Source of the DNA: Gemmata obscuriglobus
GTDB lineage: Bacteria; Planctomycetota; Planctomycetia; Gemmatales; Gemmataceae
Length of the DNA: 32,000 bases
Assembly (NCBI RefSeq): GCF_008065095.1
Contig: NZ_CP042911.1
Coordinates: 7,590,001 to 7,622,000, forward strand
Direction: 5' to 3'
In this document: one piece after another, positions 3,671-25,672 of the stretch
Position numbering within the stretch: position 1 is the first letter of the stretch
Layout: each line of letters starts with the position of its first letter
Position numbers and translations under genes: made by a program
The notes under the pieces: model-generated
Database searches by the model: none
Seen by the model: only the letters and a program-made list of their open reading frames with translations
Told to the model about the DNA's origin: nothing

Positions 3671-4012
3671 TTGCGCGTCGTGAAGGTGTATCTGGACGAC
3701 GAGCGTCCCACCCCGCCCGGCTGGGTGACCGTCCGCTGGCCGGACGAGGCCATCCGGCTGCTGGAGACCGGCCGGGTCACGGAGCTGAGCCTCGACCACG
3801 ACCTCGGGGACGACGCTCGGGGCACCGGGTACGCGGTCATCCTGTGGCTCGAGGAGGCGGTGGCCGTCCGCGGGTTCGTTCCGCCGACCATCACCGTCCA
3901 CACGGCCAACGCCTCGGCCCGGCAAAAGATGCTTCTCGGCGTCCGCAGCATCGAGCGCCTTGCCGAGCAAAGGCACGCCGAACCGGGCGGGGCACCGGAC
4001 CCGGCGGTGTAG
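3671..4012 (+). CDS. small REC-fold protein with DHDLG motif (resembles cyclic-phosphate-processing receiver-like family)
   Basis: Track ORF of 113 aa. TTG at 3671; the in-frame GTGs at 3680 and 3686 are more plausible starts. Pattern KVYLDDERPTPPGW...LSLDHDLGDD..GTGYAVILWLEE. The stop lies inside a decayed attC remnant. Confidence 0.6.
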   Translation: MRVVKVYLDDERPTPPGWVTVRWPDEAIRLLETGRVTELSLDHDLGDDARGTGYAVILWLEEAVAVRGFVPPTITVHTANASARQKMLLGVRSIERLAEQRHAEPGGAPDPAV

Positions 4013-4018
4013 TTCGTG
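3977..4018 (+). repeat. collapsed attC remnant
   Basis: GCCGAACCGGGCGGGGCACCGGACCCGGCGGTGTAGTTCGTG. The R'' and L'' arms are recognisable, the loop is lost and the R' has decayed to GTTCGTG. Confidence 0.5.
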
Positions 4019-4072
4019 TCGTGCGGCAGCTCCGCCGATGTGTCGCGGCATCCGTGGTCCCGGCGCAAGGCA

Positions 4073-4164
4073 GCCGAACCCGGCGCTGCACCTGACACCG
4101 CCAGGTGGTTTCCGACGCACCGCTCCCTGGGAGGGGGCGGTGCAGGTGAGCTTGATCGTTCGGC
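4073..4164 (+). repeat. attC-like site A2
   Basis: 92 nt, consensus arms. Confidence 0.85.
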
Positions 4165-4302
4165 CCCGCGCCGAGACCCACGGGGGTGGGCGCGATGTCG
4201 ATAGGGTAGCCAGCCCCCCATCCCAAGTGGCTGGCCCGACCCGCGCCCACCCCCGAGGCGCGAGCGGATCGGTGTAGCTCATCTGCCGGGCTGCATGAGC
4301 GG

Positions 4303-4345
4303 GGCCGAATGTGGAGCTCACCTTCACGGGCAGCCCATGTTCGGC
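4303..4345 (+). repeat. attC debris: inverted copy of an L'-R' arm plus a GTTCGGC core
   Basis: GCCGAATGTGGAGCTCACCT at 4303-4322 is the exact reverse complement of AGGTGAGCTCCACATTCGGC at 4431-4450. GTTCGGC lies at 4339-4345. Confidence 0.5.
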
Positions 4346-4360
4346 GTGGTGGGGCGCGGG

Positions 4361-4450
4361 GCCGAACCCTCCGCTGCACCAGACTCGCGCATGCAGAACT
4401 CGGGGATCGCCCCCTCCAGGGCGCGCGAGCAGGTGAGCTCCACATTCGGC
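4361..4450 (+). repeat. attC-like site A3 (divergent; R' is ATTCGGC)
   Basis: GCCGAACCCTCCGCTGCACCAGACTCGCGC...GCGCGCGAGCAGGTGAGCTCCACATTCGGC. The inner stem is replaced by a compensating TCGCGC/GCGCGA pair. Confidence 0.7.
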
Positions 4451-4771
4451 AACCCGAGGGCGCTGGATCGCGCGTGCGGCGGTGGTGGGCGTGTGGTCCG
4501 CGTGGGTGAACTCCGGTGTCGGGCTCCGCGTGGTGCCCGCCGGTGTGTGGCGCGGCTCATCGCCGCGAGGTCCGGTTGGGCGTGGTCGGCGGTGCATCGG
4601 ATCGGTGGTGCTCCGCGTGGTGCCCGTGGTTGGCGGGCGCGGCTCACCGCCGCGGGTGTCGGTGGTGGGCGGCCACCGGTGTGCCGCGGCACGGTGGTGC
4701 GGGTCGGTGGTGGCTCCGCGGATGCGCGGCGCGGGCGCGGGCTCCGCGGAACCGCGACGGTGGGCGCAGAA
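4451..4771 (+). other. non-coding cassette NC-A2 (head, 2 modules, tail type 1)
   Basis: GCGCGGCTC anchors at 4550 and 4637 (spacing 87). The tail carries two TCCGCGGA palindromes. Confidence 0.7.
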
Positions 4772-4861
4772 GCCGAACCCGGCGCTGCACCTGACACCGC
4801 CGGCTGATTCGGGAGGCATCGCTCATCGGGACGGGCGGTGCAGGTGAGCTGTATGTTCGGC
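4772..4861 (+). repeat. attC-like site A4
   Basis: 90 nt, consensus arms. Confidence 0.85.
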
Positions 4862-4889
4862 CCGGAGGCACGCGGATGGGGGGAGTCGC

Positions 4890-5240
4890 ATGAACCCACT
4901 GGATTCGCTGGCCGACCCTCGCTGGACAGCGGCGCTGACGCGAGTTGCCCACGAGTTGGTAAAATACACGCCGGAGCACTTCAAACTCATTCGCTGCGAG
5001 ATCCGGAGCCGTGACGGTGAGGCCGGGCGGGAGTTGGTCTACACGATCATCTGCCCCGATTTTCCGGACGAGTGGTCGGACACGCCAGGTAAGGATCTCC
5101 ACGCGGCCACTTGCGACCTCGTGCGGTGCTATGAGCGCGGCGGAGCTCCGTTCCCTGGGATGCGGATCGTGATCGAGGTTTTCCCCGACGGCCGGTGGCG
5201 GAACGGCTTTGAACTGTTGCCGGGCGTCACGGACGGCTGA
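4890..5240 (+). CDS. hypothetical cassette protein (tentatively YezG/DUF600-like immunity-protein pattern)
   Basis: Track ORF of 116 aa with an ATG start and its own stop 9 nt before the attC. ...ELVYTIICPDFPDEW...GMRIVIEVFPDGRWRNGFEL. Confidence 0.6.
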   Translation: MNPLDSLADPRWTAALTRVAHELVKYTPEHFKLIRCEIRSRDGEAGRELVYTIICPDFPDEWSDTPGKDLHAATCDLVRCYERGGAPFPGMRIVIEVFPDGRWRNGFELLPGVTDG

Positions 5241-5249
5241 GACATCACA

Positions 5250-5339
5250 GCCGAACCCGGCGCTGCACCGGACCGCTGTATAAGCGGTGATTTCACGACC
5301 GTGTCGCTCACACCGCGGCCGGTGAGCTTGTTGTTCGGC
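5250..5339 (+). repeat. attC-like site A5 (arm variant 2)
   Basis: GCACCGGACCGC...GCGGCCGGTGAGC. Both arms changed together. 90 nt. Confidence 0.8.
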
Positions 5340-5355
5340 AAGAGAGGCGCTCGCA

Positions 5356-5826
5356 GTGTTCGAGTTCCGGGTGACGAAGTACGACCCGGCCCACCGCGAT
5401 AGCCGCGGGGCGTACACGCGGGACGAGTGGATCGCCGTCAGCGACATCGGCCAAGCGTTCGGCGGGGTGGTCCTCACCGAAGCCGAGTATCGGCGGGTCG
5501 AGGATGCCTACGTCGCTGCCGCCATCGCGTTCTTACGGGAGGCAGGCGTCGAGGCGCTGTCCGTGGCCGGGCTGGAGAACCACGCCCGCGTGCCGCTGCC
5601 GTTCGCGGACGGGTCGTCGCTCGGGCTGGCCGAGGCGGGCGGTGTCGTCCGGCGGTTGCTGCGGGCGGAGTTCTGGTGCCGGCTGGAGGGCGCGGGGGCA
5701 TTCGTCCACGTCGGGTACGACTACTACATGTACGTCGGGGTGCCGGTGGCGTGCCCGGGCGCGGTTGCGGACGCCCGGCAACTCGGCCTGTTCCCCGAGC
5801 CGTTCCGGTCGCCGTACCACGAGTAA
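5356..5826 (+). CDS. hypothetical cassette protein
   Basis: Track ORF of 156 aa. GTG start 9 nt after AGAGAGG. Own stop. MFEFRVTKYDPAHRDSRGAYTRDEWIAVSDIG... Confidence 0.6.
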   Translation: MFEFRVTKYDPAHRDSRGAYTRDEWIAVSDIGQAFGGVVLTEAEYRRVEDAYVAAAIAFLREAGVEALSVAGLENHARVPLPFADGSSLGLAEAGGVVRRLLRAEFWCRLEGAGAFVHVGYDYYMYVGVPVACPGAVADARQLGLFPEPFRSPYHE

Positions 5827-5832
5827 AGGCAC

Positions 5833-5923
5833 GCCGAACCCGGCGCTGCACCTGACACCGCCCGCTAGACTGCGACGCTCCGCTCATCCGATGATGGCGG
5901 TGCAGGTGAGCTTTATGTTCGGC
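5833..5923 (+). repeat. attC-like site A6
   Basis: 91 nt, consensus arms. Confidence 0.85.
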
Positions 5924-6381
5924 AACCATCGCGTGCAGGAGCGCGCGTGCGGCGGCGCTGACGGTGTGGTCCGCGTGGGTGAACCTCGCGCGTCGGGCTC
6001 CGCGTGGTGCCGATCGGGTCTGGCGCGGCTCGCCGCCGCGAGCTTGCGGTGGGCGTGGCCGGCGGTATCGTGGGACACGGTAGTTCGGGGCGGTGGTGCT
6101 CCGCGTGGTGCCGTTCGGGGCCGGCGCGGCTCATCGCCGCGAGGTGCGGTTGGGCGTGGCGGGCAGTGCGTCGGGACACGGTGGTGCGAGTCGGTGGCGC
6201 TCCGCGTGGTGCCGATCGGGGCTGGCGCGGCTCGTCGCCGCGAGGTGCGGTGGTGGGTGGCCACCGGTGGGCCGGGACACGGCGCGCGGGGTCGGTGGTG
6301 CTCCGCCCGCCCGCATCGGTGGCACGTGCTCCGCGGAGCCGCGGTGCTCGGCGTGCGACCCGGAACCGCGGTGGTCCGCGA
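5924..6381 (+). other. non-coding cassette NC-A3 (head, 3 modules, tail type 2)
   Basis: GCGCGGCTC anchors at 6023, 6124 and 6225. The spacing is 101 and 101 nt, not a multiple of 3. Confidence 0.75.
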
Positions 6382-6472
6382 GCCGAACCCGGCGCTGCAC
6401 CTGACACCGCCGGCTGATTCGGGACGCACTGCTCATCCGGTGGTGGCGGTGCAGGTGAGCTATTTGTTCGGC
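6382..6472 (+). repeat. attC-like site A7
   Basis: 91 nt, consensus arms. Confidence 0.85.
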
Positions 6473-6806
6473 ACCCAGAAGGGCGCTTGATCGCGCGTGC
6501 GGTGGTGTGCGTGTGGTCCGCGTGGGTGTACCTCGCGCGTCGTGCTCCGCGTGGTGCCGATCGGGTCTGGCGCGGCTCGCCGCCGCGAGGTGCGGTTGGG
6601 CATGGTCCGTGATGTGCGGCGACACGGTGGTGCGGGTCGGTGGTGCTCCGCGTGGTGCCCGCCGGTGGTGGGCGCGGCTCATCGCCGCGGGTGGCGGTGG
6701 TGGGCGGCCACCGGTGTGCCGCGGCACGGCGCGCAGGGGCGGTGGTGGCTCCGCGGATGCGCGGTACGAGCGCGGGCTCCGCGGAACCGCAACGGCCCGC
6801 GCAGAA
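6473..6806 (+). other. non-coding cassette NC-A4 (head, 2 modules, tail type 1)
   Basis: Same family. Module spacing is 102 nt. Confidence 0.7.
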
Positions 6807-6897
6807 GCCGAACCCGGCGCTGCACCTGACACCGCCATCTGATCCGGGACGCATCGCTCATCGTGTGATGGCGGTGCAGGTGAGCTTTATGTTCGGC
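6807..6897 (+). repeat. attC-like site A8
   Basis: 91 nt, consensus arms. Confidence 0.85.
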
Positions 6898-7254
6898 AAC
6901 CATCGCGCGCGTGAGGGCGCGTGTGGTGCTGGGCGTGTGATCCGCGCGGGTGAACCCCGCGTGTGGCGCTCCGCGTGGCGCCCGTGGGTGTGTGTCGCGG
7001 CTCATCGCCGCGAGGTGCGGTTGGTCGTGGCCGGGCGCGGGTGCGGACACGGTGATTGGGGGTCGGTGGTGCTCCGCGTAGTGCCCGTGGGTGGTCGGCG
7101 CGGCTCATCGCCGCGAGGTGCGGTGGTGGGCGGCCCCCGATGTGTGGCGACACGGCGTGCGGAGTCGGTGGTGCTCCGCCCGCCCGCACTGGTGGCGCGG
7201 CCTCCGCGGATGCGCGGCGCTCGGCGTATCGCCCGGAACCGCCGAGGGCATCGA
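6898..7254 (+). other. non-coding cassette NC-A5 (head, 2 modules, tail type 2)
   Basis: Same family. Anchors at 6995 and 7098 (spacing 103 nt). Confidence 0.7.
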
Positions 7255-7345
7255 GCCGAACCCGGCGCTGCACCTGACACCGCCCGCTGATCTGGGACGC
7301 ACCGCTCATCGTGTGATGGCGGTGCAGGTGAGCTTTCTGTTCGGC
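7255..7345 (+). repeat. attC-like site A9
   Basis: 91 nt, consensus arms. Confidence 0.85.
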
Positions 7346-7362
7346 CGCAGAGGGCATCGCGG

Positions 7363-7848
7363 ATGGGTGCGGTGGTGGACGAGGCCCGGAAGCTGCTCCC
7401 CAACCTCTCGCAGGACGACCTGGGGTGGTCCGGCACTGCGTTCGTGCCGTGCTGGGGTGCCGAGTTGGACATCCACCTCACCTGCCACGACGGGGTGATG
7501 GAGGCTCGGCAGGTCGAGACCGTCCGCGCGCTCCTCGGCCACACCGAGGACATCCGGCCGGGGTTCGAGCGGGCGCTGTTCGACTACTACCAAGAGGACG
7601 TGGACGGCACCTACTGTGCCTACGGGCCGGACGGGCCGATCCCCGGGTCCGGCCCGCCGAAACTGACCGAGCCGTCCCAGGTGTGGCCGCTCATCGACGG
7701 GCCGGAGGTGTACATCAAGTGGTTCGCCCGCACCCAGTCGGCGGTCGAGTTCGAGCTGAGCTTCAACTGCGAGTGGGATCGGGAGCACGGTCTCGGGGTC
7801 TTGTACCACGACTTCCGCCCCGTTGAGTTCGGTGGCTGGGACTTGTAG
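7363..7848 (+). CDS. hypothetical cassette protein (tentatively DUF6985-like immunity-type protein)
   Basis: Track ORF of 161 aa. ATG follows AGAGGGC. C-terminal ...FNCEWDREHGLGVLYHDFRPVEFGGWDL. Own stop. Confidence 0.6.
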   Translation: MGAVVDEARKLLPNLSQDDLGWSGTAFVPCWGAELDIHLTCHDGVMEARQVETVRALLGHTEDIRPGFERALFDYYQEDVDGTYCAYGPDGPIPGSGPPKLTEPSQVWPLIDGPEVYIKWFARTQSAVEFELSFNCEWDREHGLGVLYHDFRPVEFGGWDL

Positions 7849-7855
7849 CGCCGAG

Positions 7856-7946
7856 GCCGAACCAGGCGCTGCAGCAGACCCCGCCTCATAGGTTGTTTCT
7901 AACGCTCGGCTCCCTGAGGCGGGGCTGCTGAGCTTAGTCGTTCGGC
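7856..7946 (+). repeat. attC-like site A10 (arm variant 3)
   Basis: GCAGCAGACCCCGCCTCA...TGAGGCGGGGCTGCTGAGC. Fully compensated arm replacement. 91 nt. Confidence 0.8.
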
Positions 7947-8017
7947 CACAGAAGGGCACCCGGCGCGCCGCGCGAGGAGTTGTCGCCTGCGGCGTGGCAC
8001 GGTTCCTTGAGGTTTGA

Positions 8018-8323
8018 ATGAGCATCTACCAGCGATCGTTCGGAATCGTGCCGCTGTTCGCAGGCATCGCCCTGATTGCCTACACGATCAATACGAAGTT
8101 CGTCGCCCCAGACCCCGATGACCCGATGCCCTGGAGCATCTTCATCTTCCTGTGCTTTGTGAGCCTGTCCCTGTCCGGGTGGGGGCTGGCTTGGCTTCAG
8201 GGAGAGCGGTTGAGCAAGCCTGATGACGCCAACGGTGATCGCGTTCCGGATACATCGGCAGGCGGGAGCCGGTTGCCATCCGGCGAGGCCGACGGCCGCG
8301 CGCCGAAGCCGTGGCAGAAGTGA
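8018..8323 (+). CDS. small membrane protein (two hydrophobic helices)
   Basis: Track ORF of 101 aa. FGIVPLFAGIALIAYTI and WSIFIFLCFVSLSLSGWGLAWL. Visibly more A/T-rich than the surrounding DNA. Confidence 0.55.
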   Translation: MSIYQRSFGIVPLFAGIALIAYTINTKFVAPDPDDPMPWSIFIFLCFVSLSLSGWGLAWLQGERLSKPDDANGDRVPDTSAGGSRLPSGEADGRAPKPWQK

Positions 8324-8476
8324 TGAGCATACGCGCCGCGAATCCGCGGATCGTAGGTAGATCATCACGGCACTGGACCGCTGCAGAAGTGCGTGGTTCG
8401 TAGCCCGCGTCGCGGTGTGCGCGGTGGTAATTGGGCCTGTCTCGGGCAGTTCAGCCCGTCCGGTTTGTCAAGGCAC

Positions 8477-8566
8477 GCCGAACCCGGCGCTGCACCTGAC
8501 ACCGCCATCGGGTTTGGGACGCACCGCTCATCGGGGCGGGCGGTGCAGGTGAGCTATTTGTTCGGC
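8477..8566 (+). repeat. attC-like site A11
   Basis: 90 nt, consensus arms. Confidence 0.85.
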
Positions 8567-8582
8567 CACGGAGGGCGCCAGG

Positions 8583-9056
8583 GTGTATGTCGTAGCTTGT
8601 GCGGTCGTCGTACTGGTGGCGGTTCCGAACGTTCGCGAGAACCGGGAACTCGAAGAGCTGTGGGTACGAGAGGTGGCAACTCACTTCCTTGATGCCGCAC
8701 TTGCCGAGAACTTCAAGGAGGCACTTGCGTCGGCAACCGGCGAGTTTCGCCAGCGACTCAAGCAATCATCGAAGTTGTTTTACCCCGAGGACGAATTCTC
8801 TGGGCTTAAGCAGGTTATTTGGCCAGCAACCTGGAAGGCCGGACTTGCGGACGCGGGAGCATATCCCGTCGCCCGCCGCAGTCAACTGTCGCCTGCGGGG
8901 GACGAAGCACGGGTTACCGGTAAAATTCTGATCGGTCAGAGAGGCTCACGGAAGGCAATCGCACAGTTCAGCACCACACTGAACAAACAGACCGACGGAA
9001 AATGGCGTGTCAATGGGTTGACGGTCCAGACCTTTAAGACAACGGGAGCGCCGTAA
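8583..9056 (+). CDS. hypothetical exported or membrane-anchored protein
   Basis: Track ORF of 157 aa. GTG start after GGAGGGC. Hydrophobic N-terminus VYVVACAVVVLVAV. Lower GC than the flanks. Confidence 0.55.
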   Translation: MYVVACAVVVLVAVPNVRENRELEELWVREVATHFLDAALAENFKEALASATGEFRQRLKQSSKLFYPEDEFSGLKQVIWPATWKAGLADAGAYPVARRSQLSPAGDEARVTGKILIGQRGSRKAIAQFSTTLNKQTDGKWRVNGLTVQTFKTTGAP

Positions 9057-9196
9057 GGCCAACCGGTGAGGTGTCTGATCGCCCCGCGGCCGTGCGGTAA
9101 GATACGGGGGCCGCACTCATACCGACGTGTCGCGGTGGCTCTGCGGATGCGCGATGGTGGCGCGGGCTCCGCGGATGCGCCACGGTGGGCGCGGAA

Positions 9197-9313
9197 GCCG
9201 AACCCGGCGCTGCACCTGACACCGCCATGTAGTCTGTTTACCGCTGCTCCCCACGTTTTGGTTAGCCTTGGTAGCAATCCCGGCCGGGCAGGTGAGCTGT
9301 ATGTTCGTTCGGC
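9197..9313 (+). repeat. attC-like site A12 (long, imperfect 3' arm, duplicated core GTTCGTTCGGC)
   Basis: 117 nt. Consensus 5' arm; the 3' arm is CGGCCGGGCAGGTGAGC. Confidence 0.7.
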
Positions 9314-9340
9314 TACCAGATACCCCAAGGGGCGTAGCGC

Positions 9341-9829
9341 ATGAATCGCCTTTTGTACATTATAGCGGTTGGATTACTCGCCGCAGGTTGCAACAAGGGC
9401 AAGAATCACGAGCAGAAAGACTCCGCGCGCGAAATTAAAGCCGGCGAGTCGTTCGAGGACGAGGGGCTTGTGATCAGCGTGAAGGAGATCGCGAAGACAG
9501 ATTCCGGGCTCGTGCTGGCGATCAAGGTCGCGAACAGACACGCGGGCAAGGTCCATTACTTGCCGTCGTGGGATGAGCATCCTGAACCGGCTCGGATTAC
9601 CGACGAATACCGAAACGTCTTTTACGCAGCCGGCGCTCGTGACCATCCGCTGCGACCGCCGCTCAATCGCCAGTGGTACGGGACGTTCTCCGGCAACCGG
9701 ATCGATCCCAACAAAAGTGGAGACCTCTTTATTCCCCTTGATGATATTCCGCCATCGAGCAAGCGGTTGCGTGTCGAGTTGCCCTACGGAGGACGCACGC
9801 TGGTATTCGTTGATGTGCCGAGGCGTTAG
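9341..9829 (+). CDS. lipoprotein (signal peptide with lipobox LLAAGC)
   Basis: Track ORF of 162 aa. MNRLLYIIAVGLLAAGCNKG. Clearly lower GC than the window average. Confidence 0.65.
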   Translation: MNRLLYIIAVGLLAAGCNKGKNHEQKDSAREIKAGESFEDEGLVISVKEIAKTDSGLVLAIKVANRHAGKVHYLPSWDEHPEPARITDEYRNVFYAAGARDHPLRPPLNRQWYGTFSGNRIDPNKSGDLFIPLDDIPPSSKRLRVELPYGGRTLVFVDVPRR

Positions 9830-9892
9830 TAGCGCTTAGACGCTGAGCTAGGAGTGTGTCGATATTACGGGTTGCACACGCACAGCCCGAGG

Positions 9893-9922
9893 GCAGAACC
9901 CGGCGCTGCACCTGGCACCGCC
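9893..9922 (+). repeat. terminal half attC (R''-L'' arm only)
   Basis: GCAGAACCCGGCGCTGCACCTGGCACCGCC with no 3' arm. It ends 23 nt from the stop of the TerL C-terminal fragment. Confidence 0.6.
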
Positions 9923-9945
9923 GTCTGAACCTTCTCCCCTTGCCC

Positions 9946-16681: not shown

Positions 16682-16695
16682 AACAGAGGGCGCTG

Positions 16696-18908: not shown

Positions 18909-18999
18909 GCCGAACCCGGCGCTGCACCTGACACCGCCATGTAGTTTGGACGGCATCGCTCATCCGATGATGGCGGTGCAGGTGAGCTGTATGTTCGGC
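18909..18999 (+). repeat. attC-like site B15
   Basis: 91 nt, consensus arms. Confidence 0.85.
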
Positions 19000-19027
19000 C
19001 GCGGAAGGTATCGGAGGTGGTAGCGGC

Positions 19028-19525: not shown

Positions 19526-19533
19526 GCGCAGAC

Positions 19534-19625
19534 GCCGAACCCGGCGCTGCACCTGACACCGCCATGTAGTCTGTGTTGCGTTGCTCCTTGGGAGGGGGCG
19601 GTGCAGGTGAGCTTCAATATTCGGC
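19534..19625 (+). repeat. attC-like site B16 (R' is ATTCGGC)
   Basis: 92 nt. Consensus arms; the first base of the core is G to A. Confidence 0.8.
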
Positions 19626-19643
19626 AACAGAAGGGCGCACGGA

Positions 19644-20186
19644 ATGGCGGAACCGCAAGCCACCGAGTACCCGACGCGCGAATGGCTTACCGATCGCTTT
19701 GCGGACGTGCAGTTCACGCACCGCGTCCCCGCCGTGAAGTGGGCATACTTCACGCAGTTGATCCGCCCGCTTGCGGGTGAAGCCGCAGGAATCCTATGGT
19801 CGGCGCTGTTCGCCGGGGTTGGGCGGCCGTTCCATCCCCGGCTCGCACGCGGGTGGATGGGGGAGCTGTTCAAGCGAGGCCCCCGCAGTCGGGGCTCTGA
19901 CTTCAAGCACGGGGAGTTACTCGACGCGGGGCTGTGCAGCCGGTTGGGGTGGGCGTCCTCCGCGCCGGTGTTCCTGGTCTTCCAGCCGACGCAGGTGTAC
20001 GTGGCCCCCTGGTCCGTGTGGCTAGATTGCTTCCGCCGCAGTTGGGTGCCGTTCGATACCTCGGTCCTGTGCAGCGACTCGTCATCGAAGGTCGCGGTGT
20101 TCTGGGAGGGCTTTGGCCCGTACTTCGCCGACCGCGGGGCGCGAAGCCTGGCCGAACCCAGCGCTGCACCGGACCCGGCCACGTAG
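19644..20186 (+). CDS. hypothetical cassette protein (180 aa)
   Basis: Track ORF. ATG after CAGAAGGGCGC. The stop lies in the attC loop. Confidence 0.55.
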   Translation: MAEPQATEYPTREWLTDRFADVQFTHRVPAVKWAYFTQLIRPLAGEAAGILWSALFAGVGRPFHPRLARGWMGELFKRGPRSRGSDFKHGELLDAGLCSRLGWASSAPVFLVFQPTQVYVAPWSVWLDCFRRSWVPFDTSVLCSDSSSKVAVFWEGFGPYFADRGARSLAEPSAAPDPAT

Positions 20187-20262
20187 TTCGTTTCCCGGCG
20201 CTCCCCGGTCGGCCGTGTGCGCTACTGGTGTCGCGGCCGGGCCGGTGAGCTTTATGTTCGGC
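20151..20262 (+). repeat. attC-like site B17 (arm variant, long loop)
   Basis: 112 nt. CACCGGACCCGGCC...GGCCGGGCCGGTG. Confidence 0.8.
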
Positions 20263-20619
20263 CACCCCGAGCCGCTCGATCGCGCGTGCGGCGGCGGTGG
20301 GCGTATGGCCCGCGTGGGTGAACCGCGCGTGTGGTGCTCCGCGTGGTGCCGGCGGTGGCGGGCGCGGCTCGCCGCCGCGAGCTTGCGGTGGTCGTGGCCG
20401 GGTGCGGATGGGTGCACGGTGGTGCGGGTCGGTGGTGCTCCGCTGAGACCGATCGGTTGCGGGCGCGGCTCATCGCCGCGTGTGGCGGTGGTGGGTGGCC
20501 CTCGGTGTGCCGGGACACGGCGCGCGGAGTCGGTGGTGCTCCGCCCGGTCGCACCGGTGGCACGGGCTCCGCAGATGCGCGGCGCTCGGCGTGTTGCCCG
20601 GAACCGCGGAGGGGAGCGA
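20263..20619 (+). other. non-coding cassette NC-B9 (2 modules, tail type 2)
   Basis: Anchors at 20362 and 20463 (spacing 101). Confidence 0.7.
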
Positions 20620-20710
20620 GCCGAACCCGGCGCTGCACCTGACACCGCCCGCTCTACTGCGACGCTCCGCTCATCCGGTGATGGCGGTGCAGGTGAGCTT
20701 GTTGTTCGGC
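20620..20710 (+). repeat. attC-like site B18
   Basis: 91 nt, consensus arms. Confidence 0.85.
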
Positions 20711-20725
20711 AGGAAGAGGGCGCGG

Positions 20726-21232
20726 ATGGGGAACGTCCGGCTGAGAACGGTGACCTATTCGGACCTCTCCGCTTTGCGGCACGAAGTGGCGGTCGTCGAT
20801 GGCCCGCAGTTCCAACCTCCCGAGTTCCTCGTCGTTCGCTACTTCGGCTCCTATCGCGATGGGTCCGAGGGCACGCCGGACGCCAAGTACATCCTCGCCG
20901 CGTCCGCAGCCGCCCGGGAGGCGTGGTGGTCACGGTGTACCGTCCTCGACTTCCGTGAGCTCGTGTACCGCTGGGGAGACAACATGGCGTGGGTCACTCA
21001 GATCGGGCGCGATGGGGTGACCAAGCTCCAGTGGCCGCTCGCCATCGTGGTTGGGGACGGTTGTCGTGATGCACTCCGGTCACTGTTGCGGGACGAGTAT
21101 GCGGGTCTGTGCGTGGAGTCGCTGGACGAGGCGTTTACCCTCTGCCGAGTTAAGGCTGAGGAGCATGAGCGACAGCTCAAGCAGTGGCGGCCGCGGGCCG
21201 AACCCGGCGCTGCACCTGACACCGCCGGCTGA
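20726..21232 (+). CDS. hypothetical cassette protein (168 aa), copy 2 of 3
   Basis: Same protein as 16120-16626. Confidence 0.6.
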   Translation: MGNVRLRTVTYSDLSALRHEVAVVDGPQFQPPEFLVVRYFGSYRDGSEGTPDAKYILAASAAAREAWWSRCTVLDFRELVYRWGDNMAWVTQIGRDGVTKLQWPLAIVVGDGCRDALRSLLRDEYAGLCVESLDEAFTLCRVKAEEHERQLKQWRPRAEPGAAPDTAG

Positions 21233-21287
21233 CTTGTGACGCATCGCTCATTCGATGATGGCGGTGCAGGTGAGCTCTTTGTTCGGC
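21197..21287 (+). repeat. attC-like site B19
   Basis: 91 nt, consensus arms. Confidence 0.85.
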
Positions 21288-21303
21288 CACCAGAGGCGTA
21301 CGG

Positions 21304-21771
21304 ATGAATCGCTGGCGTGTGAGGTTGCTCGCGTTCGCTGGCTTGTGCTCGGTCGGCACTCTCATGTACCTGACCCGCGCCGATCGTACGCCCGAGGCCG
21401 ACCCGGAAGGGCTCCATACGGATGACCGCGTCCGACGACTGGCCCCGTACGACATCGCGGCCGCAACGGTGGCAACGTGGTCTCCACTCGACATACCACC
21501 GCTGGGGGTGGTGCCCGCGGGCGCCACCCGTCCACGCCGGGAAGTGTTCGAGGCGCTCGGACTCGACGAACACCGGGTCCGTGACCTCCGTGCGTCCCCT
21601 TCCTTTCGCGTGACGATTCTTCGGTGGCAGGTGTCTCCGTCCTACGACGTGGTGTGTATGACCGCTGACAACAGCCCGGCGTCTAGCGCGGTCCCGCTCG
21701 ATGACCCGGAACGCTCGGTCTACGGCATCCGGTTCGTGAGCCGCTCGGAGGGGGCACACCATATCTGGTAA
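21304..21771 (+). CDS. hypothetical exported protein
   Basis: Track ORF of 155 aa. N-terminal MNRWRVRLLAFAGLCSVGTLMYL. Own stop. Confidence 0.55.
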   Translation: MNRWRVRLLAFAGLCSVGTLMYLTRADRTPEADPEGLHTDDRVRRLAPYDIAAATVATWSPLDIPPLGVVPAGATRPRREVFEALGLDEHRVRDLRASPSFRVTILRWQVSPSYDVVCMTADNSPASSAVPLDDPERSVYGIRFVSRSEGAHHIW

Positions 21772-21788
21772 TCGGCCAGAGCAACGGA

Positions 21789-21879
21789 GCCGAACCCCGC
21801 GCTGCACCGGACCGCGGCGACCGAAGCTGATTCCAGTGTTCATGCTCACACGCCGCGGCCGGTGAGCTCATTGTTCGGC
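21789..21879 (+). repeat. attC-like site B20 (arm variant 2)
   Basis: CACCGGACCGCGGC...GCCGCGGCCGGTG. 91 nt. Confidence 0.8.
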
Positions 21880-22237
21880 CACCATCGCGTGCATGATCGC
21901 GCGGGCGGCGGTGCTGGGCGTGTGGTCCGCATGGGTGAACTCCGCGTGTCGGGCTCCGCATTATGCCGGTGGTCGCGGGCGCGGCTCATCGCCGCGAGCT
22001 TGCGGTGAGCGTGGCCGGCGGTGTCGTGGGACACGGCGTTTCGTGTCGGTGGTGCTCCGCGTGGCGCCCGTGGGTGGTGGGCGCGGCTCATCGCCGCGAG
22101 GTGCGGTTGGGCGTGGGCTCCGGTGTGCCGCGACACGGCGCGTCGGGTCGGTGGTGGCTCCGCTCGGCCGCGTCGGTGGGCGGGCTCCGCGGCGCCGCAG
22201 TGCTCGGCGTGAGGCCCGGAACCGCGGTGGTCAGCGA
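21880..22237 (+). other. non-coding cassette NC-B10 (2 modules)
   Basis: Anchors at 21979 and 22081 (spacing 102). Confidence 0.7.
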
Positions 22238-22328
22238 GCCGAACCCGGCGCTGCACCTGACACCGCCATCGGCATTGTGACCCACTGCTCATCGTATGAT
22301 GGCGGTGCAGGTGAGCTGTTCGTTCGGC
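22238..22328 (+). repeat. attC-like site B21
   Basis: 91 nt, consensus arms. Confidence 0.85.
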
Positions 22329-22344
22329 ACCAGAAGGGCGCTCC

Positions 22345-22881
22345 GTGGATAGGTTCGAGGTCGCGCTCTACCCGCCGCTCGCCGAATGCCCGCCCGAGCG
22401 CCGAAGCTACCGGCAAGCGCACCTGGCGATCAACGGGCAATCGCTGCTTGAGTTGGTTCGGACAGCCGAGGAGCCGTGGGCACGGGCCGAGTACTTGGAG
22501 CGGCTGCCCGAGTTCGAGAACCCGGACGAGTTCCGGTTCGAGCCGGGCGACTACCACTACCTGCCCGCGTCTTGGCTGCTCCTGCCGAGTCTGGAGTTGC
22601 TCGGCCGTCCCCGCGACCCGGGGTTCGCGCTGGAACTGGGCGACCCGCGTCGGTCCAAGGCAACGGTCCTGGGTTGCACCTGCGGGATCGTGCAGTGCTG
22701 GTTCGTGCAGGTGCGGGTCACGGTACGCGCGGAGGTGGTCGAGTGGTCCGAGTTCGGGCAGTTCCACCGCCCGCACTGGCACTACGGTTTGGGTCCGTTC
22801 ACCTTCGACCGCCGGCAGTACGAGGCGCAACTCGTACCCCAAGAGGCCGAACCCGGCGCTGCACCTGACACCGCCCGCTGA
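22345..22881 (+). CDS. hypothetical cassette protein (178 aa)
   Basis: Track ORF. GTG after CAGAAGGGCGC. ...VLGCTCGIVQCWFVQVRV... The stop lies in the attC loop. Confidence 0.55.
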   Translation: MDRFEVALYPPLAECPPERRSYRQAHLAINGQSLLELVRTAEEPWARAEYLERLPEFENPDEFRFEPGDYHYLPASWLLLPSLELLGRPRDPGFALELGDPRRSKATVLGCTCGIVQCWFVQVRVTVRAEVVEWSEFGQFHRPHWHYGLGPFTFDRRQYEAQLVPQEAEPGAAPDTAR

Positions 22882-22937
22882 GTTGTGACGCACCGCTCAT
22901 CGTGTGATGGCGGTGCAGGTGAGCTTCATTGTTCGGC
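22846..22937 (+). repeat. attC-like site B22
   Basis: 92 nt, consensus arms. Confidence 0.85.
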
Positions 22938-22955
22938 AACCAGAGGGCCTCGCGA

Positions 22956-23255
22956 GTGGACGCCTCTTGGCTGGTCCGGCGCGTGACGGTGGCTGAGGCC
23001 GAGGCGGCGCATACGGCCCGCCGGGTGTCAGGCCGCCCCGCACCCGTGCCGTTCGGGGGCCTCAGCGCGCAGTGGCGGGAGCTGGTGGCCGAGATGCGCC
23101 CGGGCGATGAGCTGTGGGAGTACGACAGCCCGGCCGCCGAGTGGGATCGCAACATGGGCAGCTCGGGGTACATCCTGATCCGGCCGGGGGCCGAGGGCCA
23201 CATCCGACTGCCGGACGGCGGTGTCGTGGCCTGCGTCACTTGCCGGATGAACTGA
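22956..23255 (+). CDS. hypothetical cassette protein (about 99 aa)
   Basis: GTG at 22956, in frame with track ORF 22929-23255, whose TTG start lies inside the attC. Own stop. The start is uncertain. Confidence 0.45.
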   Translation: MDASWLVRRVTVAEAEAAHTARRVSGRPAPVPFGGLSAQWRELVAEMRPGDELWEYDSPAAEWDRNMGSSGYILIRPGAEGHIRLPDGGVVACVTCRMN

Positions 23256-23319
23256 GTGCCTGTGCTCCTGCTGCGGCTCCGCCGGCCGGTCGCGGCGGTC
23301 GTGGTCCCAGAGCAAGGCA

Positions 23320-23410
23320 GCCGAACCCGGCGCTGCACCTGACACCGCCATCAGGTTTGTGACGCACCGCTCATCCGATGATAGCGGTGCAGGTGAGCTT
23401 TATGTTCGGC
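23320..23410 (+). repeat. attC-like site B23
   Basis: 91 nt. The 3' arm is AGCGGTGCAGGTGAGC. Confidence 0.85.
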
Positions 23411-23428
23411 ACCAGAGGGACGCATCGG

Positions 23429-23731
23429 ATGAGCCTCGTCGTTCGCCTGTGTGTGTGCAACGACGCTGACAGCGGGGCCGACCGGTTAGTGGAGGTCGTC
23501 CCAAGCGACTTCAGCGTCGCCCTTCGACCCGGCGAGGAGTGCGTCGTTACCGCTGTCGGGTTGGACGCGGTGCCGTCGCTGACGGTTGTCGAGTCGGCCT
23601 ACGGCACGCATGTCATCTGCGAAGGCGGGGCCGCGGTCACCGTCGAGGGGCCTCGTCGATACCAGATGCGCGGTCTGGCAGAGGCGCCGCAAGAAGCCGA
23701 ACCCGGCGCTGCACCTGACACCGCCATGTGA
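23429..23731 (+). CDS. hypothetical cassette protein (100 aa)
   Basis: ATG at 23429 after CAGAGGGAC. MSLVVRLCVCNDADSGADRLVEVVPSDF... The stop lies in the attC loop (tail AEPGAAPDTAM). Confidence 0.5.
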   Translation: MSLVVRLCVCNDADSGADRLVEVVPSDFSVALRPGEECVVTAVGLDAVPSLTVVESAYGTHVICEGGAAVTVEGPRRYQMRGLAEAPQEAEPGAAPDTAM

Positions 23732-23786
23732 TTCGGACCCCGCCGCTCATCCGATGATGGCGGTGCAGGTGAGCTATTTGTTCGGC
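23696..23786 (+). repeat. attC-like site B24
   Basis: 91 nt, consensus arms. Confidence 0.85.
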
Positions 23787-23804
23787 AACCAGAGGGCGCA
23801 GCGG

Positions 23805-24089
23805 ATGGGTAGCAGCGAAGCGAGCCTGCCTCTTTACGATCACTGCTCGCTGTGCGGCGCAGCAATCCGCAGGTGCGATTCGGTGGTGACCATCGAACGG
23901 CACGAAGAGCAGGTGTGTGCAAACGGCGACGTCGAGATCACTCGAGCGGAGGTGCTGGTGTCGCTTTGCATGCCTTGTGGGCAGCGTTACCCGCTGTCGG
24001 TTACACGGGTCGAGTTGGGCGGTCAAGCGTTCATCGGCGCGAAGTGGCCCGAGGCCGAACCCGGCGCTGCACCTGACACCGCCCGCTGA
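23805..24089 (+). CDS. hypothetical Cys-rich cassette protein, copy 2
   Basis: Same protein as 15765-16049 (offset 8040). Confidence 0.55.
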   Translation: MGSSEASLPLYDHCSLCGAAIRRCDSVVTIERHEEQVCANGDVEITRAEVLVSLCMPCGQRYPLSVTRVELGGQAFIGAKWPEAEPGAAPDTAR

Positions 24090-24144
24090 TTCGGAACGCA
24101 TCGCGGCCCGGGACCTCGCGGTGCAGGTGAGCTGTTCGTTCGGC
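24054..24144 (+). repeat. attC-like site B25
   Basis: Copy of B9. Confidence 0.85.
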
Positions 24145-24159
24145 AGGAAGAGGGCGCGG

Positions 24160-24666
24160 ATGGGGAACGTCCGGCTGAGAACGGTGACCTATTCGGACCT
24201 CTCCGCTTTGCGGCACGAAGTGGCGGTCGTCGATGGCCCGCAGTTCCAACCTCCCGAGTTCCTCGTCGTTCGCTACTTCGGCTCCTATCGCGATGGGTCC
24301 GAGGGCACGCCGGACGCCAAGTACATCCTCGCCGCGTCCGCAGCCGCCCGGGAGGCGTGGTGGTCACGGTGTACCGTCCTCGACTTCCGTGAGCTCGTGT
24401 ACCGCTGGGGAGACAACATGGCGTGGGTCACTCAGATCGGGCGCGATGGGGTGACCAAGCTCCAGTGGCCGCTCGCCATCGTGGTTGGGGACGGTTGTCG
24501 TGATGCACTCCGGTCACTGTTGCGGGACGAGTATGCGGGTCTGTGCGTGGAGTCGCTGGACGAGGCGTTTACCCTCTGCCGAGTTAAGGCTGAGGAGCAT
24601 GAGCGACAGCTCAAGCAGTGGCGGCCGCGGGCCGAACCCGGCGCTGCACCTGACACCGCCGGCTGA
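24160..24666 (+). CDS. hypothetical cassette protein (168 aa), copy 3 of 3
   Basis: Same protein as 16120-16626. Confidence 0.6.
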   Translation: MGNVRLRTVTYSDLSALRHEVAVVDGPQFQPPEFLVVRYFGSYRDGSEGTPDAKYILAASAAAREAWWSRCTVLDFRELVYRWGDNMAWVTQIGRDGVTKLQWPLAIVVGDGCRDALRSLLRDEYAGLCVESLDEAFTLCRVKAEEHERQLKQWRPRAEPGAAPDTAG

Positions 24667-24721
24667 CTTGTGACGCATCGCTCATTCGATGATGGCGGTG
24701 CAGGTGAGCTCTTTGTTCGGC
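24631..24721 (+). repeat. attC-like site B26
   Basis: Copy of B10. Confidence 0.85.
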
Positions 24722-24735
24722 AACAGAGGGCGCTG

Positions 24736-25323
24736 ATGGCAGCGGATGAGGTGGTCCCGCACATCGGCATCCGGTCGCTCGCCGGCATGGTGCGGCTGGG
24801 CATGACCCGCGCGGAAGTACAACCCCTGCTCGACCAGGATCGCGACATCCGGGTGGATTTCCGCGGTGATCCACCGGTGGTGGCGTTCGTCGAATCGCCC
24901 AAGCACTGGGGATCGTTCGAGGGCATCGACCTGTTCGAGGCCGGGGCCGACGAGGTCATCGCCGAGATCGCCGAGCGGCTCGGGTTGGCGCCAGAAGTGT
25001 ACCGGCCAGGGCGGCACTCGTACTACTTCCCCGATCTGCGCATGGGCCTGTGGCGGAGTTGCGTGTCGGACGAGGACGGCGACCAGGGCTTCACGTTCGA
25101 CAGCGTGAGCGTCCACGCGCCGGGGTACTACGATCCCACGGGACTGGCGTTCATCCGGCATCAGGGCGGGCTGCCTCCGGAGCAGAGGCACGCCGAACCC
25201 GGCGCTGCACCTGACACCGCCCGCTGTATTGTGACGCACCGCTCATCCGGTCATGGCGGTGCAGGTGAGCTAATTGTTCGGCTACCGGAGGTAGACGCGG
25301 ATGGACGCGGCCCGACTGCATGA
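24736..25323 (+). CDS. hypothetical cassette protein, copy 2 of 16696-17259; reads through the attC into the next cassette
   Basis: Identical up to the GTTCGGC core at 25282. After that the C-terminus differs because the downstream cassette differs. Confidence 0.55.
   Translation: MAADEVVPHIGIRSLAGMVRLGMTRAEVQPLLDQDRDIRVDFRGDPPVVAFVESPKHWGSFEGIDLFEAGADEVIAEIAERLGLAPEVYRPGRHSYYFPDLRMGLWRSCVSDEDGDQGFTFDSVSVHAPGYYDPTGLAFIRHQGGLPPEQRHAEPGAAPDTARCIVTHRSSGHGGAGELIVRLPEVDADGRGPTA
25192..25282 (+). repeat. attC-like site B27
   Basis: Copy of B11. Confidence 0.85.
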
Positions 25324-25672
25324 GTGGGTGGCCACGTACAACTGGGACGACGGTCTCGCCCCGGTGTGGGCCATCGCCGAGTGGCCGCGGACCGAATTCG
25401 CTACCGCCCTGCTGATCTACTGGCGGCTCGGCGGGCCGTGGCTGGAGGGCGACGCGGCTCCCGGCAACGCCCACGCCGTCCGGCTCCAGGCGGTGGTCCG
25501 CGAGCGTCTGCTGGTCGGGTTCTATCTGCGGGGCGCGTCCCGCTACGACCCGGCCGCCGAGATGACCCGCGTGCAACTCCACCAGTTCCGTAAGGCGGGA
25601 GTGCCGGAAGTATTGCTCTTGGCGTGTGGCCCAGAGGCCGAACCCGGCGCTGCACCTGACACCGCCGGCTGA
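25301..25672 (+). CDS. hypothetical cassette protein, resembles the DUF4274 family (NWDDG motif)
   Basis: Track ORF of 123 aa. LHEWVATYNWDDGLAPVWAIAEWPRTEFATALLIYWRLGG. The stop lies in the attC loop. Confidence 0.6.
   Translation: MDAARLHEWVATYNWDDGLAPVWAIAEWPRTEFATALLIYWRLGGPWLEGDAAPGNAHAVRLQAVVRERLLVGFYLRGASRYDPAAEMTRVQLHQFRKAGVPEVLLLACGPEAEPGAAPDTAG

Follow-up and report, generated by a model that had tools for sequence, protein, structure and literature searches.

The small genes that lie between conserved repeats in this part of the Gemmata obscuriglobus chromosome raise the question of whether they form a store dedicated to orphan immunity or an ordinary integron gene pool. Analysis of the window, i.e. 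the whole 32,000-nucleotide stretch (contig NZ_CP042911.1, positions 7,590,001 to 7,622,000), leads us to regard the region as quite probably a pair of cassette arrays of the Gemmata chromosomal-integron type, located within a dead or defective Mu-like prophage and carrying a general gene pool. The initial annotation had proposed an integron-style array of orphan immunity genes; the integron part of this proposal stands, based on canonical attC sites and on the integrases of relatives, while the dedicated immunity store does not.

The two arrays run head-to-tail on the plus strand over ~22 kb and comprise 41 cassettes in total. Specifically, array A (3329–9922) has 13 cassettes, 7 coding and 6 non-coding, and array B (11683–25726) has 28, 18 coding and 10 non-coding. 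Minus-strand phage genes separate the arrays at 9893–11682, and the 3' end of array A is a truncated attC that retains the R''-L'' half only (9893–9922). The ~40 attC sites share a single orientation throughout, measure 90–113 nt, and fold on the bottom strand: a 7-bp R stem is followed by an internal loop, then by an L stem that has two single-base bulges, and finally by a variable loop. Changes in variant sites are compensatory, folding z-scores range from −3.1 to −4.5, and the repeats between the ORFs are canonical attC sites. The exact 30-mer of the attC core is nearly confined to Gemmata/Gemmataceae and related planctomycete assemblies. The 16 non-coding cassettes (of 41) lack a credible ORF, showing flat GC by codon position and indels that are not multiples of three. 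Within array B, a three-cassette block (15741–17236) recurs at 23781–25276 (repeat families D14 and D20).

Each array is opened by its own putative attI-like site. In array A, this region (3090–3328, plus strand; recombination point after G3328) contains three GTGTTATTG(C/T)GC repeats and the core GCGAAGCCTCGCACACTAAACACTG|GTTCGGC. Copy 2 precedes array B (11235–11682, plus strand; recombination point after G11682), the segment 2880–3338 being duplicated at 11235–11692 with 92.6% identity. The core is also found at array starts in G. algarum (L010, L029, and L006), and a related locus (L001) has a similar GTGTTA..TTGCGC motif next to the attI that adjoins intI. No tyrosine recombinase, such as adjoins the recombinase-associated acquired interbacterial defense (rAID) clusters of Bacteroidales that the initial annotation offered as an analogy, is adjacent, and no recombinase or integrase gene was found in the window. 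As such, the arrays are in practice CALINs, i.e. attC-site clusters that have no integron integrase, in the definition of Cury et al. 2016 (cited in PMC8618304). In related Gemmataceae genomes (L030, L001, and L002), true integron integrases (TIGR02249, 368–449 bits against a cut-off of 265) precede the attC core by 1–3 kb and share its strand. A sigma-70 scan, uninformative at 70% GC, found no promoter in the window.

The coding cassettes hold 25 small ORFs, all on the plus strand, single and without partner genes as first described, and encoding 94–187 aa. Those of array A are at 3671–4012, 4890–5240, 5356–5826, 7363–7848, 8018–8323, 8583–9056, and 9341–9829, and those of array B start at 12655, 13295, 14334, 15765, 16120, 16696, 17713, 19028, 19644, 20726, 21304, 22345, 22956, 23429, 23805, 24160, 24736, and 25301. 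They amount to 21 distinct proteins, with identical sets c20=c36, c21=c30=c37, and c22=c38. GC3 ranges from 0.72 to 0.93 against a GC2 of 0.42–0.57, and 16 of 21 leaders (one per distinct protein) follow the pattern GTTCGGC-N3-5-RGAGGG-N7-9-start, which sets the start codon 16–24 nt from the recombination point. Because of this codon-position GC signal and the fixed ribosome-binding leader, the cassette ORFs are probably translated. Among the ORFs predicted to be exported or lipoproteins, the translations display matching hydrophobic or export features at the N-terminus (8018, two transmembrane helices; 8583 and 21304, an N-terminal anchor; 9341, the lipobox LAAGC; and 12655, a signal peptide ending in ANA/Q). 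The exported or membrane share (5/21, 24%) is normal for integrons, whose cassettes usually encode 10–30% exported proteins (PMC8618304). Net acidity characterizes 15 of the 16 cytoplasmic proteins, and the ORFs have no Pfam toxin-domain match, in agreement with the earlier statement that the array lacks toxins.

Pfam supports four of the five families that the initial annotation had named, each in one of the 4 distinct proteins (of 21) that reach a gathering score. The other 17 of the 21 match no family at that score, an NCBIfam scan of the cassette proteins returned nothing above the curated cut-off, and PADLOC gave no match at E ≤ 0.001 among 22 cassette and 3 flanking proteins, its single LmuB match (E = 0.0086) being not significant. 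The 113-aa product of 3671–4012 (plus strand), previously called a REC-fold protein, is confirmed here as a stand-alone cREC (cyclic-phosphate-processing receiver-like) domain protein (Pfam PF20274, cREC_REC; 1.9e-27, profile positions 2–83 of 88). In NAD+-centred conflict systems, the predicted role of the cREC domain is the processing of cADPR or 2'-3' cyclic phosphates (PMC7824862). By contrast, the assignment of 4890–5240 (plus strand, 116 aa) to YezG/DUF600 fails, as neither DUF600 nor any other Pfam family matches at E ≤ 0.1, and none of 46 scanned relatives (47 cluster representatives found) matches DUF600. In these 46, the domain is fused to SUFU (3), ankyrin (1), or TPR (1). Such SUFU/ankyrin-type architecture has been described for "polyimmunity proteins" (PMC3482391) and is a hallmark of immunity domains, which makes 4890–5240 a candidate immunity-type domain of an unnamed family.

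The ORF at 19028–19525 (plus strand) encodes an acidic protein of 165 aa whose proposed Imm1 identity passes the Pfam gathering score, although marginally (PF14430, 6.9e-5; 24.0 bits against 22.4), with a C-terminal match restricted to the final 34 of 125 profile positions. PF14430 is also found in 1 of its 9 homologues, and the contexts inspected for these homologues contain no toxin neighbors. For 7363–7848 (plus strand, 161 aa) and 25301–25672 (plus strand, 123 aa), membership in DUF6985 (Pfam 3e-21) and DUF4274 (Pfam 4.3e-10), respectively, is upheld, but the immunity role is not, as homologues are lone genes without toxin neighbors. DUF6985 is the sole Pfam domain in all but one of 47 homologues, which are flanked by housekeeping genes, and 68 stand-alone DUF4274 homologues occur in scattered contexts; close homologues of both are lone genes amid housekeeping genes, including one between rpsD and rpoA. 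The confident AF2 models (pLDDT 90 for 7363–7848 and 85 for 25301–25672) have no fold match in the PDB. A role for DUF4274 and DUF6985 as immunity proteins is unsupported, with no toxin neighbors and models unlike any solved immunity protein.

In related Gemmata arrays, ~20 of 133 cassette ORFs match Pfam, in many unrelated families. These arrays include 2 SUKH and one Imm22 cassette among the 133, and others of GNAT, SMR, GrpB, NADAR, SecDF-like, and SLOG type; a SUFU protein is found near their attC sites. Given the marginal Imm1 match, the SUFU/ankyrin-related domain of 4890–5240, and the SUKH and Imm22 cassettes of related arrays, immunity and conflict genes represent a real minority, about 5–15% of coding cassettes. 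Only one or two of the 21 distinct proteins, at most, are toxin-immunity look-alikes, and most of the rest are without known function; the arrays are therefore an ordinary integron gene pool rather than a dedicated immunity store. Profile-invisible immunity proteins could be numerous among the unassigned cassette proteins.

We consider it unlikely that the region is instead a dedicated orphan-immunity store, i.e. an integron-borne polyimmunity locus akin to rAID, in which most cytoplasmic proteins would neutralize the toxins of competitors. The rAID clusters of Bacteroidales, a subject of Ross et al. in 2019, reportedly possess a recombinase and a repeat type of their own, and their genes are said to neutralize T6SS toxins. 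They resemble the Gemmata arrays as arrays of small orphan genes with conserved repeats in between and an association with the tyrosine recombinase family; however, the repeats here are attC, the recombinase would be an IntI acting in trans, and protection would be only hypothetical. Heterogeneous polyimmunity loci and polyimmunity proteins (Zhang et al. 2012, PMC3482391) are likewise built of tandem small genes in one orientation without toxins, differ in content between relatives, sometimes adjoin a tyrosine recombinase, and share some immunity-like members (Imm1 and the 4890–5240 domain, whose relatives include SUFU/ankyrin fusions). The single, co-oriented genes, the lack of a toxin gene, and the SUFU, ankyrin, and TPR fusions of the 4890–5240 family would all fit such a locus, but polyimmunity loci are runs of recognized immunity families (PMC3482391), whereas at most 1–2 of 21 proteins qualify here, and the repeats between these genes are the attC sites of an integron. 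The marginal Imm1 match at 19028–19525 is consistent with a store, but it is the one named immunity family among the 21 proteins, and the 8 inspected contexts of the DUF4274, DUF6985, and Imm1-like families have no toxin neighbors; the DUF4274 and DUF6985 models also resemble no solved immunity protein. Similarly, the acidity of the cytoplasmic proteins would suit immunity functions, but exported or membrane proteins account for 5 of 21 and 16 of 41 cassettes are non-coding, and the SUKH, Imm22, and SUFU genes of related arrays are accompanied by GNAT, SMR, GrpB, NADAR, and SecDF-like cassettes.

Less likely still is a bank of anti-phage defense or counter-defense genes. Sedentary integrons have been reported as anti-phage defense biobanks (bioRxiv 10.1101/2024.07.02.601686), cREC is tied to NAD+-centred conflict systems (PMC7824862), related arrays have NADAR and SLOG cassettes, and the arrays are located in a prophage; yet PADLOC, run on 22 cassette and 3 flanking proteins, recognizes no defense-system protein (LmuB being not significant), and the cassettes are all single genes of 94–187 aa, while most known systems are larger or multi-gene.

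The arrays split the packaging module (terminase and portal) of a Mu-like prophage, whose genes described here are on the minus strand. A Mu-type portal gene (1–2298, running off the window; Pfam Portal_Mu 8.8e-30, phrog_113) is separated from the first attI-like site by a gene for a phage coiled-coil protein of ~172 aa (2302–2817), and in a Gemmata MAG (L016) both genes are likewise conserved next to an array of attC sites. Between the arrays lies the C-terminal (nuclease) half of the large terminase (9946–10731; phrog_27743 1.7e-92, with a weak TerL phrog_5713 match), which aligns with residues 250–396 of the Meiothermus phage MMP17 TerL (E = 5e-6). Upstream of it is a small phrog_2293-like phage gene (10775–11070, start uncertain; 7.4e-14), the match covering residues 177–266 of the open frame 10775–11593. 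The N-terminal (ATPase) half (26715–27800; phrog_7579 1.2e-100, Terminase_6N) stops just past the ATPase domain and aligns to MMP17 TerL residues 9–241. Mu-like phage genomes measure ~33–40 kb, hence a packaging limit, and that of MMP17 is 33 kb. That a live Mu-like phage carries the arrays as cargo, with cassettes as an exchangeable accessory-gene region, is very improbable because the large terminase gene is in two halves 16 kb apart and a Mu-like head would be overfilled by the 22 kb of cassettes that lie between terminase and portal, even though the flanking portal, terminase, methyltransferase, and DnaJ-domain genes are ordered as in MMP17, the portal-side junction with an attC array recurs in a second Gemmata genome (L016), and CALINs on phages are already known (PMC9892861).

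Taken as a whole, the array is thus not an immunity locus but a general reservoir of the integron kind, in which immunity-type cassettes form a minority. By analogy with established integron biology, an IntI from elsewhere in the genome would act in trans, folding the attC bottom strand, excising cassettes via attC × attC, and re-inserting them at attI, while promoter-distal cassettes would be stored silently. Each coding cassette has a Shine-Dalgarno-like leader and would therefore be translated once transcribed. When expressed, conflict-type cassettes (Imm1-like, 4890–5240, and the cREC phosphoesterase-like protein) may neutralize incoming toxins or signaling nucleotides.

Among known systems, sedentary chromosomal integrons (for example the Vibrio cholerae superintegron and those of Xanthomonas), including the "inverted-integrase" group of spirochaetes and planctomycetes, have similarly long one-orientation arrays of single-gene cassettes, highly similar attC with the canonical fold, paralogous or duplicated cassettes, and proteins mostly of unknown function, 10–30% of them exported; the integrase of the relatives also lies on the cassette strand. 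In contrast to sedentary integrons, the Gemmata arrays lack an adjoining integrase and toxin-antitoxin cassettes, have two attI-like sites, devote a third of their cassettes to one non-coding family, and have more than half of their ORFs reading into attC in a single reading frame. CALINs have also been described, including a cryptic-prophage CALIN that has an attI of its own and terminase genes on its flanks (PMC8618304, PMC9892861), and they match the Gemmata arrays in lacking an adjacent intI, in an attI-like start for each array, and in being embedded in a probably defective prophage, among its structural and packaging genes. With 41 cassettes and 22 kb, the Gemmata arrays far exceed known CALINs in size; they also split the terminase gene itself, and their portal-side junction is common to another Gemmata species.

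The window has a G+C content of ~70%, and repeat searches reveal a dominant family of ~90-nt repeats running from 3570 to 25726, with every copy on the + strand. The copies share the layout GCCGAAC-CCGGC-GCTGCACCTGAC-ACCGCC...variable...GGCGGT-GCAGGTGAGC-TNNNT-GTTCGGC, the majority being 90-91 nt long and some 112-117 nt. Folded as single-stranded DNA, their bottom strands pair the outer heptamers into a 7-bp R stem, which an internal loop separates from an L stem carrying two single-base bulges, and the terminal loop is variable (z = -3.1 to -4.5); the variants at 5250 and 7856 differ in the sequence of the inner stem and keep its pairing. Such a structure (R''-L''...L'-R', with GTT in R') is what defines an integron attC site. 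A total of 41 cassettes lie in tandem in one orientation, all with their attC on the + strand, and 25 of these carry one ORF.

Public genomes contain the exact 30-nt core of these sites in 46 stretches, and nearly all of the stretches come from Gemmata algarum, Gemmata sp. IIL30, a Gemmata MAG, a Gemmataceae isolate, and related planctomycete MAGs. Among ORFs near the core in these genomes, scanned with TIGR02249 (cut-off 265 bits), we find integron integrases in Gemmataceae CJuql4 (stretch L030, 449 bits), the Gemmata MAG stretch L001 (399 bits), and a contig assigned by binning to an uncultured Alcaligenaceae MAG (L002, 368 bits). All three integrases share the strand of the attC sites, which is the "inverted integrase" arrangement of planctomycetes and spirochaetes. 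Because integrases lie near the same attC core in relatives, this attC family is part of a genuine lineage of chromosomal integrons, and the initial annotation of the locus as integron-style holds on both counts, i.e. the repeats themselves and the integrases that accompany their core.

No tyrosine recombinase adjoins the arrays within the window: Pfam searches of all window ORFs with codon-position GC support return no tyrosine recombinase or Phage_integrase domain. A hidden recombinase at 2302-3087 was also rejected, as this gene has coiled-coil matches only and accompanies a portal gene (its true start is probably 2817). Clusters of attC sites without an integrase are defined as CALINs (PMC8618304), and this is the class of the window clusters, since they have no adjacent integrase. 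A recombinase-associated acquired interbacterial defence (rAID) cluster, as in Bacteroidales, would call for its own tyrosine recombinase beside the array, of which the window has none, together with genes that neutralise T6SS effectors.

The cassettes form two arrays: array A (3329-9922), with 13 cassettes and a truncated attC at its end, and array B (11683-25726), with 28 cassettes. Both open with ...CACACTAAACACTG joined to GTTCGGC, with no R''/L'' half upstream. A 459-nt segment at 2880-3338 is duplicated at 11235-11692 with 92.6% identity, and both copies end in ...GCGAAGCCTCGCACACTAAACACTG joined to GTTCGGC, the left half of attC being absent. The attI-like core is also kept at array starts in G. 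algarum, and upstream GTGTTATTGCGC repeats (GTGTTA..TTGCGC) are similar to motifs that accompany the intI-adjacent attI of L001. From these sequence features, we read the duplicated segments as two candidate attI-like sites. Along with the attI-like core, the duplication carries three GTGTTATTG(C/T)GC direct repeats and TTACCGTG/CACGGTAA inverted repeats, which are candidate IntI-binding or regulatory sites. A sigma-70 promoter scan performs no better than on shuffled sequences, and Rfam has no match in the window. Just beyond the last attC, at 25868-25912, lie two copies of a GTTAAC-rich palindromic tandem repeat, CGCGCGTTAACCGCGCGGTTAAC.

The 25 coding cassettes hold one ORF each (94-187 aa), exactly the number first reported, and these ORFs have GC3 far above GC2, as do real genes of this genome. 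A three-cassette block (15741-17236) recurs at 23781-25276, with one of its cassettes present again at 20705-21281, so that the distinct proteins number only 21. Examining one ORF per distinct protein, we find the leader GTTCGGC-N3-5-RGAGGG-N7-9-start in 16 of 21, i.e. a Shine-Dalgarno-like motif at a constant position. Features of signal peptides, lipoproteins, or membrane proteins are seen in five of the 21 distinct proteins (24%); exported proteins generally make up 10-30% of integron cassettes in published surveys (PMC8618304, PMC10963911), and the initial observation of exported proteins is correct but ordinary. An 85-aa ORF at 18687-18944 was rejected as a gene, being Arg-rich with flat codon-position GC and lying in a cassette that aligns with a non-coding family. 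None of the 41 cassettes (3329-25726) contains a toxin-antitoxin pair or two genes, which differs from Vibrio-type sedentary integrons, where toxin-antitoxin cassettes are common and thought to stabilise the array.

Many cassette ORFs also extend into the attC site. Specifically, one identical frame carries 14 of the 26 ORFs of the window into attC, and likewise 39 of the 133 in an enlarged sample of cassette ORFs taken from related Gemmata arrays. In all of these, attC itself encodes the last residues, AEPGAAPDTAx, and then a conserved stop codon that lies in its loop (e.g. 16591-16626, 22846-22881, and 25637-25672 among the 14 cassette ORFs). The other two frames are used by zero to two ORFs. 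Either the tail is selected, or the phase was fixed by cassette genesis. In the duplicated cassette c22/c38 (16696-17259 and 24736-25323), the attC stop is mutated from CGCTGA to CGCTGT, and as a result the ORF reads through the entire attC and terminates only within the cassette that follows. The first coding cassette has, besides its complete attC, a degenerate left half (GCCGAACCGGGCGGGGCACCGGAC...) that lacks a right half; it lies at 3977-4012, 96 nt upstream of the complete site, and gives the cREC ORF (3671-4012) its C-terminal tail and stop codon.

Five cassette ORFs had been assigned to immunity-type families, and Pfam recovers four of the five names. The ORF at 3671-4012 matches cREC_REC (PF20274; 96.2 bits vs a threshold of 27, E = 1.9e-27, profile positions 2-83 of 88), with the acidic-residue motifs YLDDE and SLDHDLG visible in its sequence; the family is predicted to be a phosphoesterase of NAD+-centred conflict and RNA-repair systems, with cADPR or 2'-3' cyclic phosphates as its substrates (PMC7824862), and it is not a classic immunity protein. 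The ORF at 7363-7848 matches DUF6985 over nearly its full length (PF22481; 77 bits vs 24.5, E = 3e-21), and that at 25301-25672 matches DUF4274 (PF14096; 39.9 bits vs 27, E = 4.3e-10), a domain present in 66 of its 67 homologues. The fourth assignment, Imm1 (PF14430) for 19028-19525, is marginal (24.0 bits vs 22.4, E = 6.9e-5), covering only 34 profile positions (91-124 of 125) and recurring in one of nine homologues. For 4890-5240, named YezG/DUF600, there is no Pfam match at E <= 0.1, and DUF600 is found in none of 46 scanned relatives.

An immunity role forms no part of the DUF4274 family definition. Close homologues of DUF4274 and DUF6985 are many and are single-domain proteins; in six inspected neighbourhoods these lie beside housekeeping or unrelated genes with no toxin gene nearby, e.g. 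one DUF4274 homologue sits between rpsD and rpoA. AF2 models are confident (pLDDT 90 for DUF6985 and 85 for DUF4274) and find no counterpart among solved structures (best E = 0.77 and 4.5, respectively), so structure neither supports nor excludes an immunity role for either. Literature searches on the two families turn up a single passing mention of DUF4274, in a table of a Stenotrophomonas T6SS cluster. For Imm1, the expected link is to an SCP1.201-type deaminase polymorphic toxin (PMC3482391); no toxin domain adjoins the Imm1-like homologues in the two contexts inspected. Of the five named examples, DUF4274 and DUF6985 therefore have no support as immunity proteins, and for the Imm1-like protein the label is weak.

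The remaining 16 distinct cassette proteins have nothing above the Pfam threshold. One of these, 14334-14774, has an E-value of 0.011 to DUF7919 and a 34%-identical relative in L013, a related stretch with the same attC core. This relative is the likely source of a DUF7919 match (2.5e-31) among the related-array ORFs, and by sequence 14334-14774 is probably a diverged DUF7919 member. PADLOC, NCBIfam, and PHROGs identify no defence system among cassette and flank proteins: PADLOC returns no defence-system protein (among 25 proteins, a single one matches LmuB, at E = 0.0086), and the sole NCBIfam match to a cassette protein is the sub-threshold TIGR03067 for 12655-13161 (21 bits vs 40). PDB sequence searches with eight cassette proteins give nothing below E = 0.18.

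The family of 4890-5240 is a separate case. It has no match among PDB sequences, and an exhaustive HMMER search retrieves 47 cluster representatives, many of 200-380 aa with the shared domain at one end. The Pfam partners of these relatives are SUFU (3), ankyrin repeats (1), and TPR (1); in the ankyrin-fused relative (P0151), the repeats span residues 91-230 and the 4890-5240 domain 274-375. In polyimmunity proteins, as described by Zhang et al. (PMC3482391), immunity domains that are unrelated to one another are likewise fused to SuFu, ankyrin, and TPR modules. Because of these shared fusion partners, we consider it plausible that this ORF represents a new immunity-type domain, distinct from YezG.

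The 133 related-array ORFs enlarge the sample, and ~20 of them have a Pfam match. Among the matches are SMI1_KNR4/SUKH (2), Imm22/DUF4284 (1), DUF2262 (3), NADAR, a SLOG domain, GNAT, an SMR transporter, GrpB, DUF6985, and DUF7919. One related locus also has a SUFU protein close to its attC sites. Recognised immunity families account for ~3% of related cassettes and 5-10% of those in the window, where adding cREC brings the conflict-linked share to ~15%. Immunity and conflict cassettes are a visible minority within very mixed content. The window, with at most one named family among 21 proteins, also differs from a heterogeneous polyimmunity locus, which has at least four tandem genes of recognised immunity families (Zhang et al. 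2012).

The proposed store of orphan immunity genes survives in part only: the locus is an integron cassette reservoir of known type with a modest conflict/immunity component, and it is not a dedicated orphan-immunity array. A broader version, in which Gemmata integrons are partly a reservoir of acquired interbacterial defence and many of the unassigned acidic cassette proteins are unrecognised immunity domains, seems unlikely to us. Under it, the integron machinery would collect orphan immunity and counter-signalling genes such as Imm1-like, SUKH, Imm22, SUFU-linked domains, cREC, and NADAR. If true, no earlier polyimmunity system would rest on attC/IntI recombination, and Planctomycetes would gain their first extended one; with a sizeable immunity share, integrons would count, beside rAID clusters and polyimmunity loci, among the pre-emptive routes against competitors' toxins, and some of the huge unknown integron-cassette pool would gain a function. 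The evidence supports a small immunity/conflict component only. The value of the locus is mainly descriptive, in that it shows a planctomycete integron array of large size whose cassettes are tidy and ready for translation, and it also yields the candidate immunity domain of the 4890-5240 family. Its side features are an abundant non-coding family, the frame-locked C-terminal tail encoded by attC, and arrays that split a prophage terminase. The initial annotation was largely accurate on the ORFs, and surprisingly so for four family calls, while its picture of the locus was incomplete, missing the two arrays within a prophage and 16 gene-less cassettes.

These 16 of the 41 cassettes have no credible ORF, with 75% GC that is flat by codon position and indels whose lengths do not keep a reading frame of three. 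A single non-coding family of ~325-550 nt (most ~425-450 nt) accounts for at least 13 of the 41 cassettes; its members are made of 1-3 tandem units of 101-103 nt, each with an invariant hairpin, CGCGGC-N5-GCCGCG. Members lie at 3329-3654, 4445-4855, 5918-7339, 11683-12574, 13885-14310, 14865-15740, 17237-17690, 18214-18667, 20257-20704, and 21874-22322, and partly at 18668-18993, i.e. interspersed every 1-3 coding cassettes. The family is also found in G. algarum and Gemmata MAG arrays at ~80% identity. A structured RNA finds no support: a consensus fold of 26 distinct units has one invariant GC hairpin and next to no covariation (covariation term -0.18 kcal/mol).

The arrays are flanked by prophage genes on the - strand. 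A Mu-type portal (1-2298; Pfam 8.8e-30) is followed by a coiled-coil protein (2302-2817) between it and the array A side, and beyond array B lie the ATPase half of a large terminase (26715-27800; phrog_7579, 1.2e-100), a DnaJ-domain protein (28924-29547), and a DNA methyltransferase (29520-30758). This set is in nearly the order of MMP17, a Mu-like Meiothermus phage, except that the DnaJ and methyltransferase genes are swapped. The nuclease half of the terminase (9946-10731, - strand; phrog_27743, 1.7e-92) is 16 kb from the ATPase half, separated from it by array B and ~1 kb. The ATPase half aligns with residues 9-241 of the MMP17 large terminase (TerL) and the nuclease half with residues 250-396, indicating that the TerL gene is cut at the ATPase/nuclease junction. 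A single 2.8-kb cassette at 9308-12132 was rejected because this interval holds further phage genes.

The same phage-integron junction is present elsewhere. Positions 1-1700 of L016, from a Gemmata MAG, have the same order of portal, coiled-coil gene, attI, and attC array as 1-3700 of the window, and the L016 attI matches the type adjoining intI in the same MAG (L001). The junction is therefore common to two species and not unique to this genome. For arrays inside a prophage, the cryptic Shewanella prophage M16-3 provides a close precedent. PHROGs holds a separate ~235-aa family for each terminase half (phrog_7579 and phrog_27743), and split terminases may thus recur in related prophages. Array B and the ATPase half are 1 kb apart, and within this gap two small paralogous ORFs on the + strand (26235-26366, 43 aa; 26539-26679, 46 aa) share the motif RWG.LLLRW.WF..EV, and each is preceded by a similar ~100-nt sequence.
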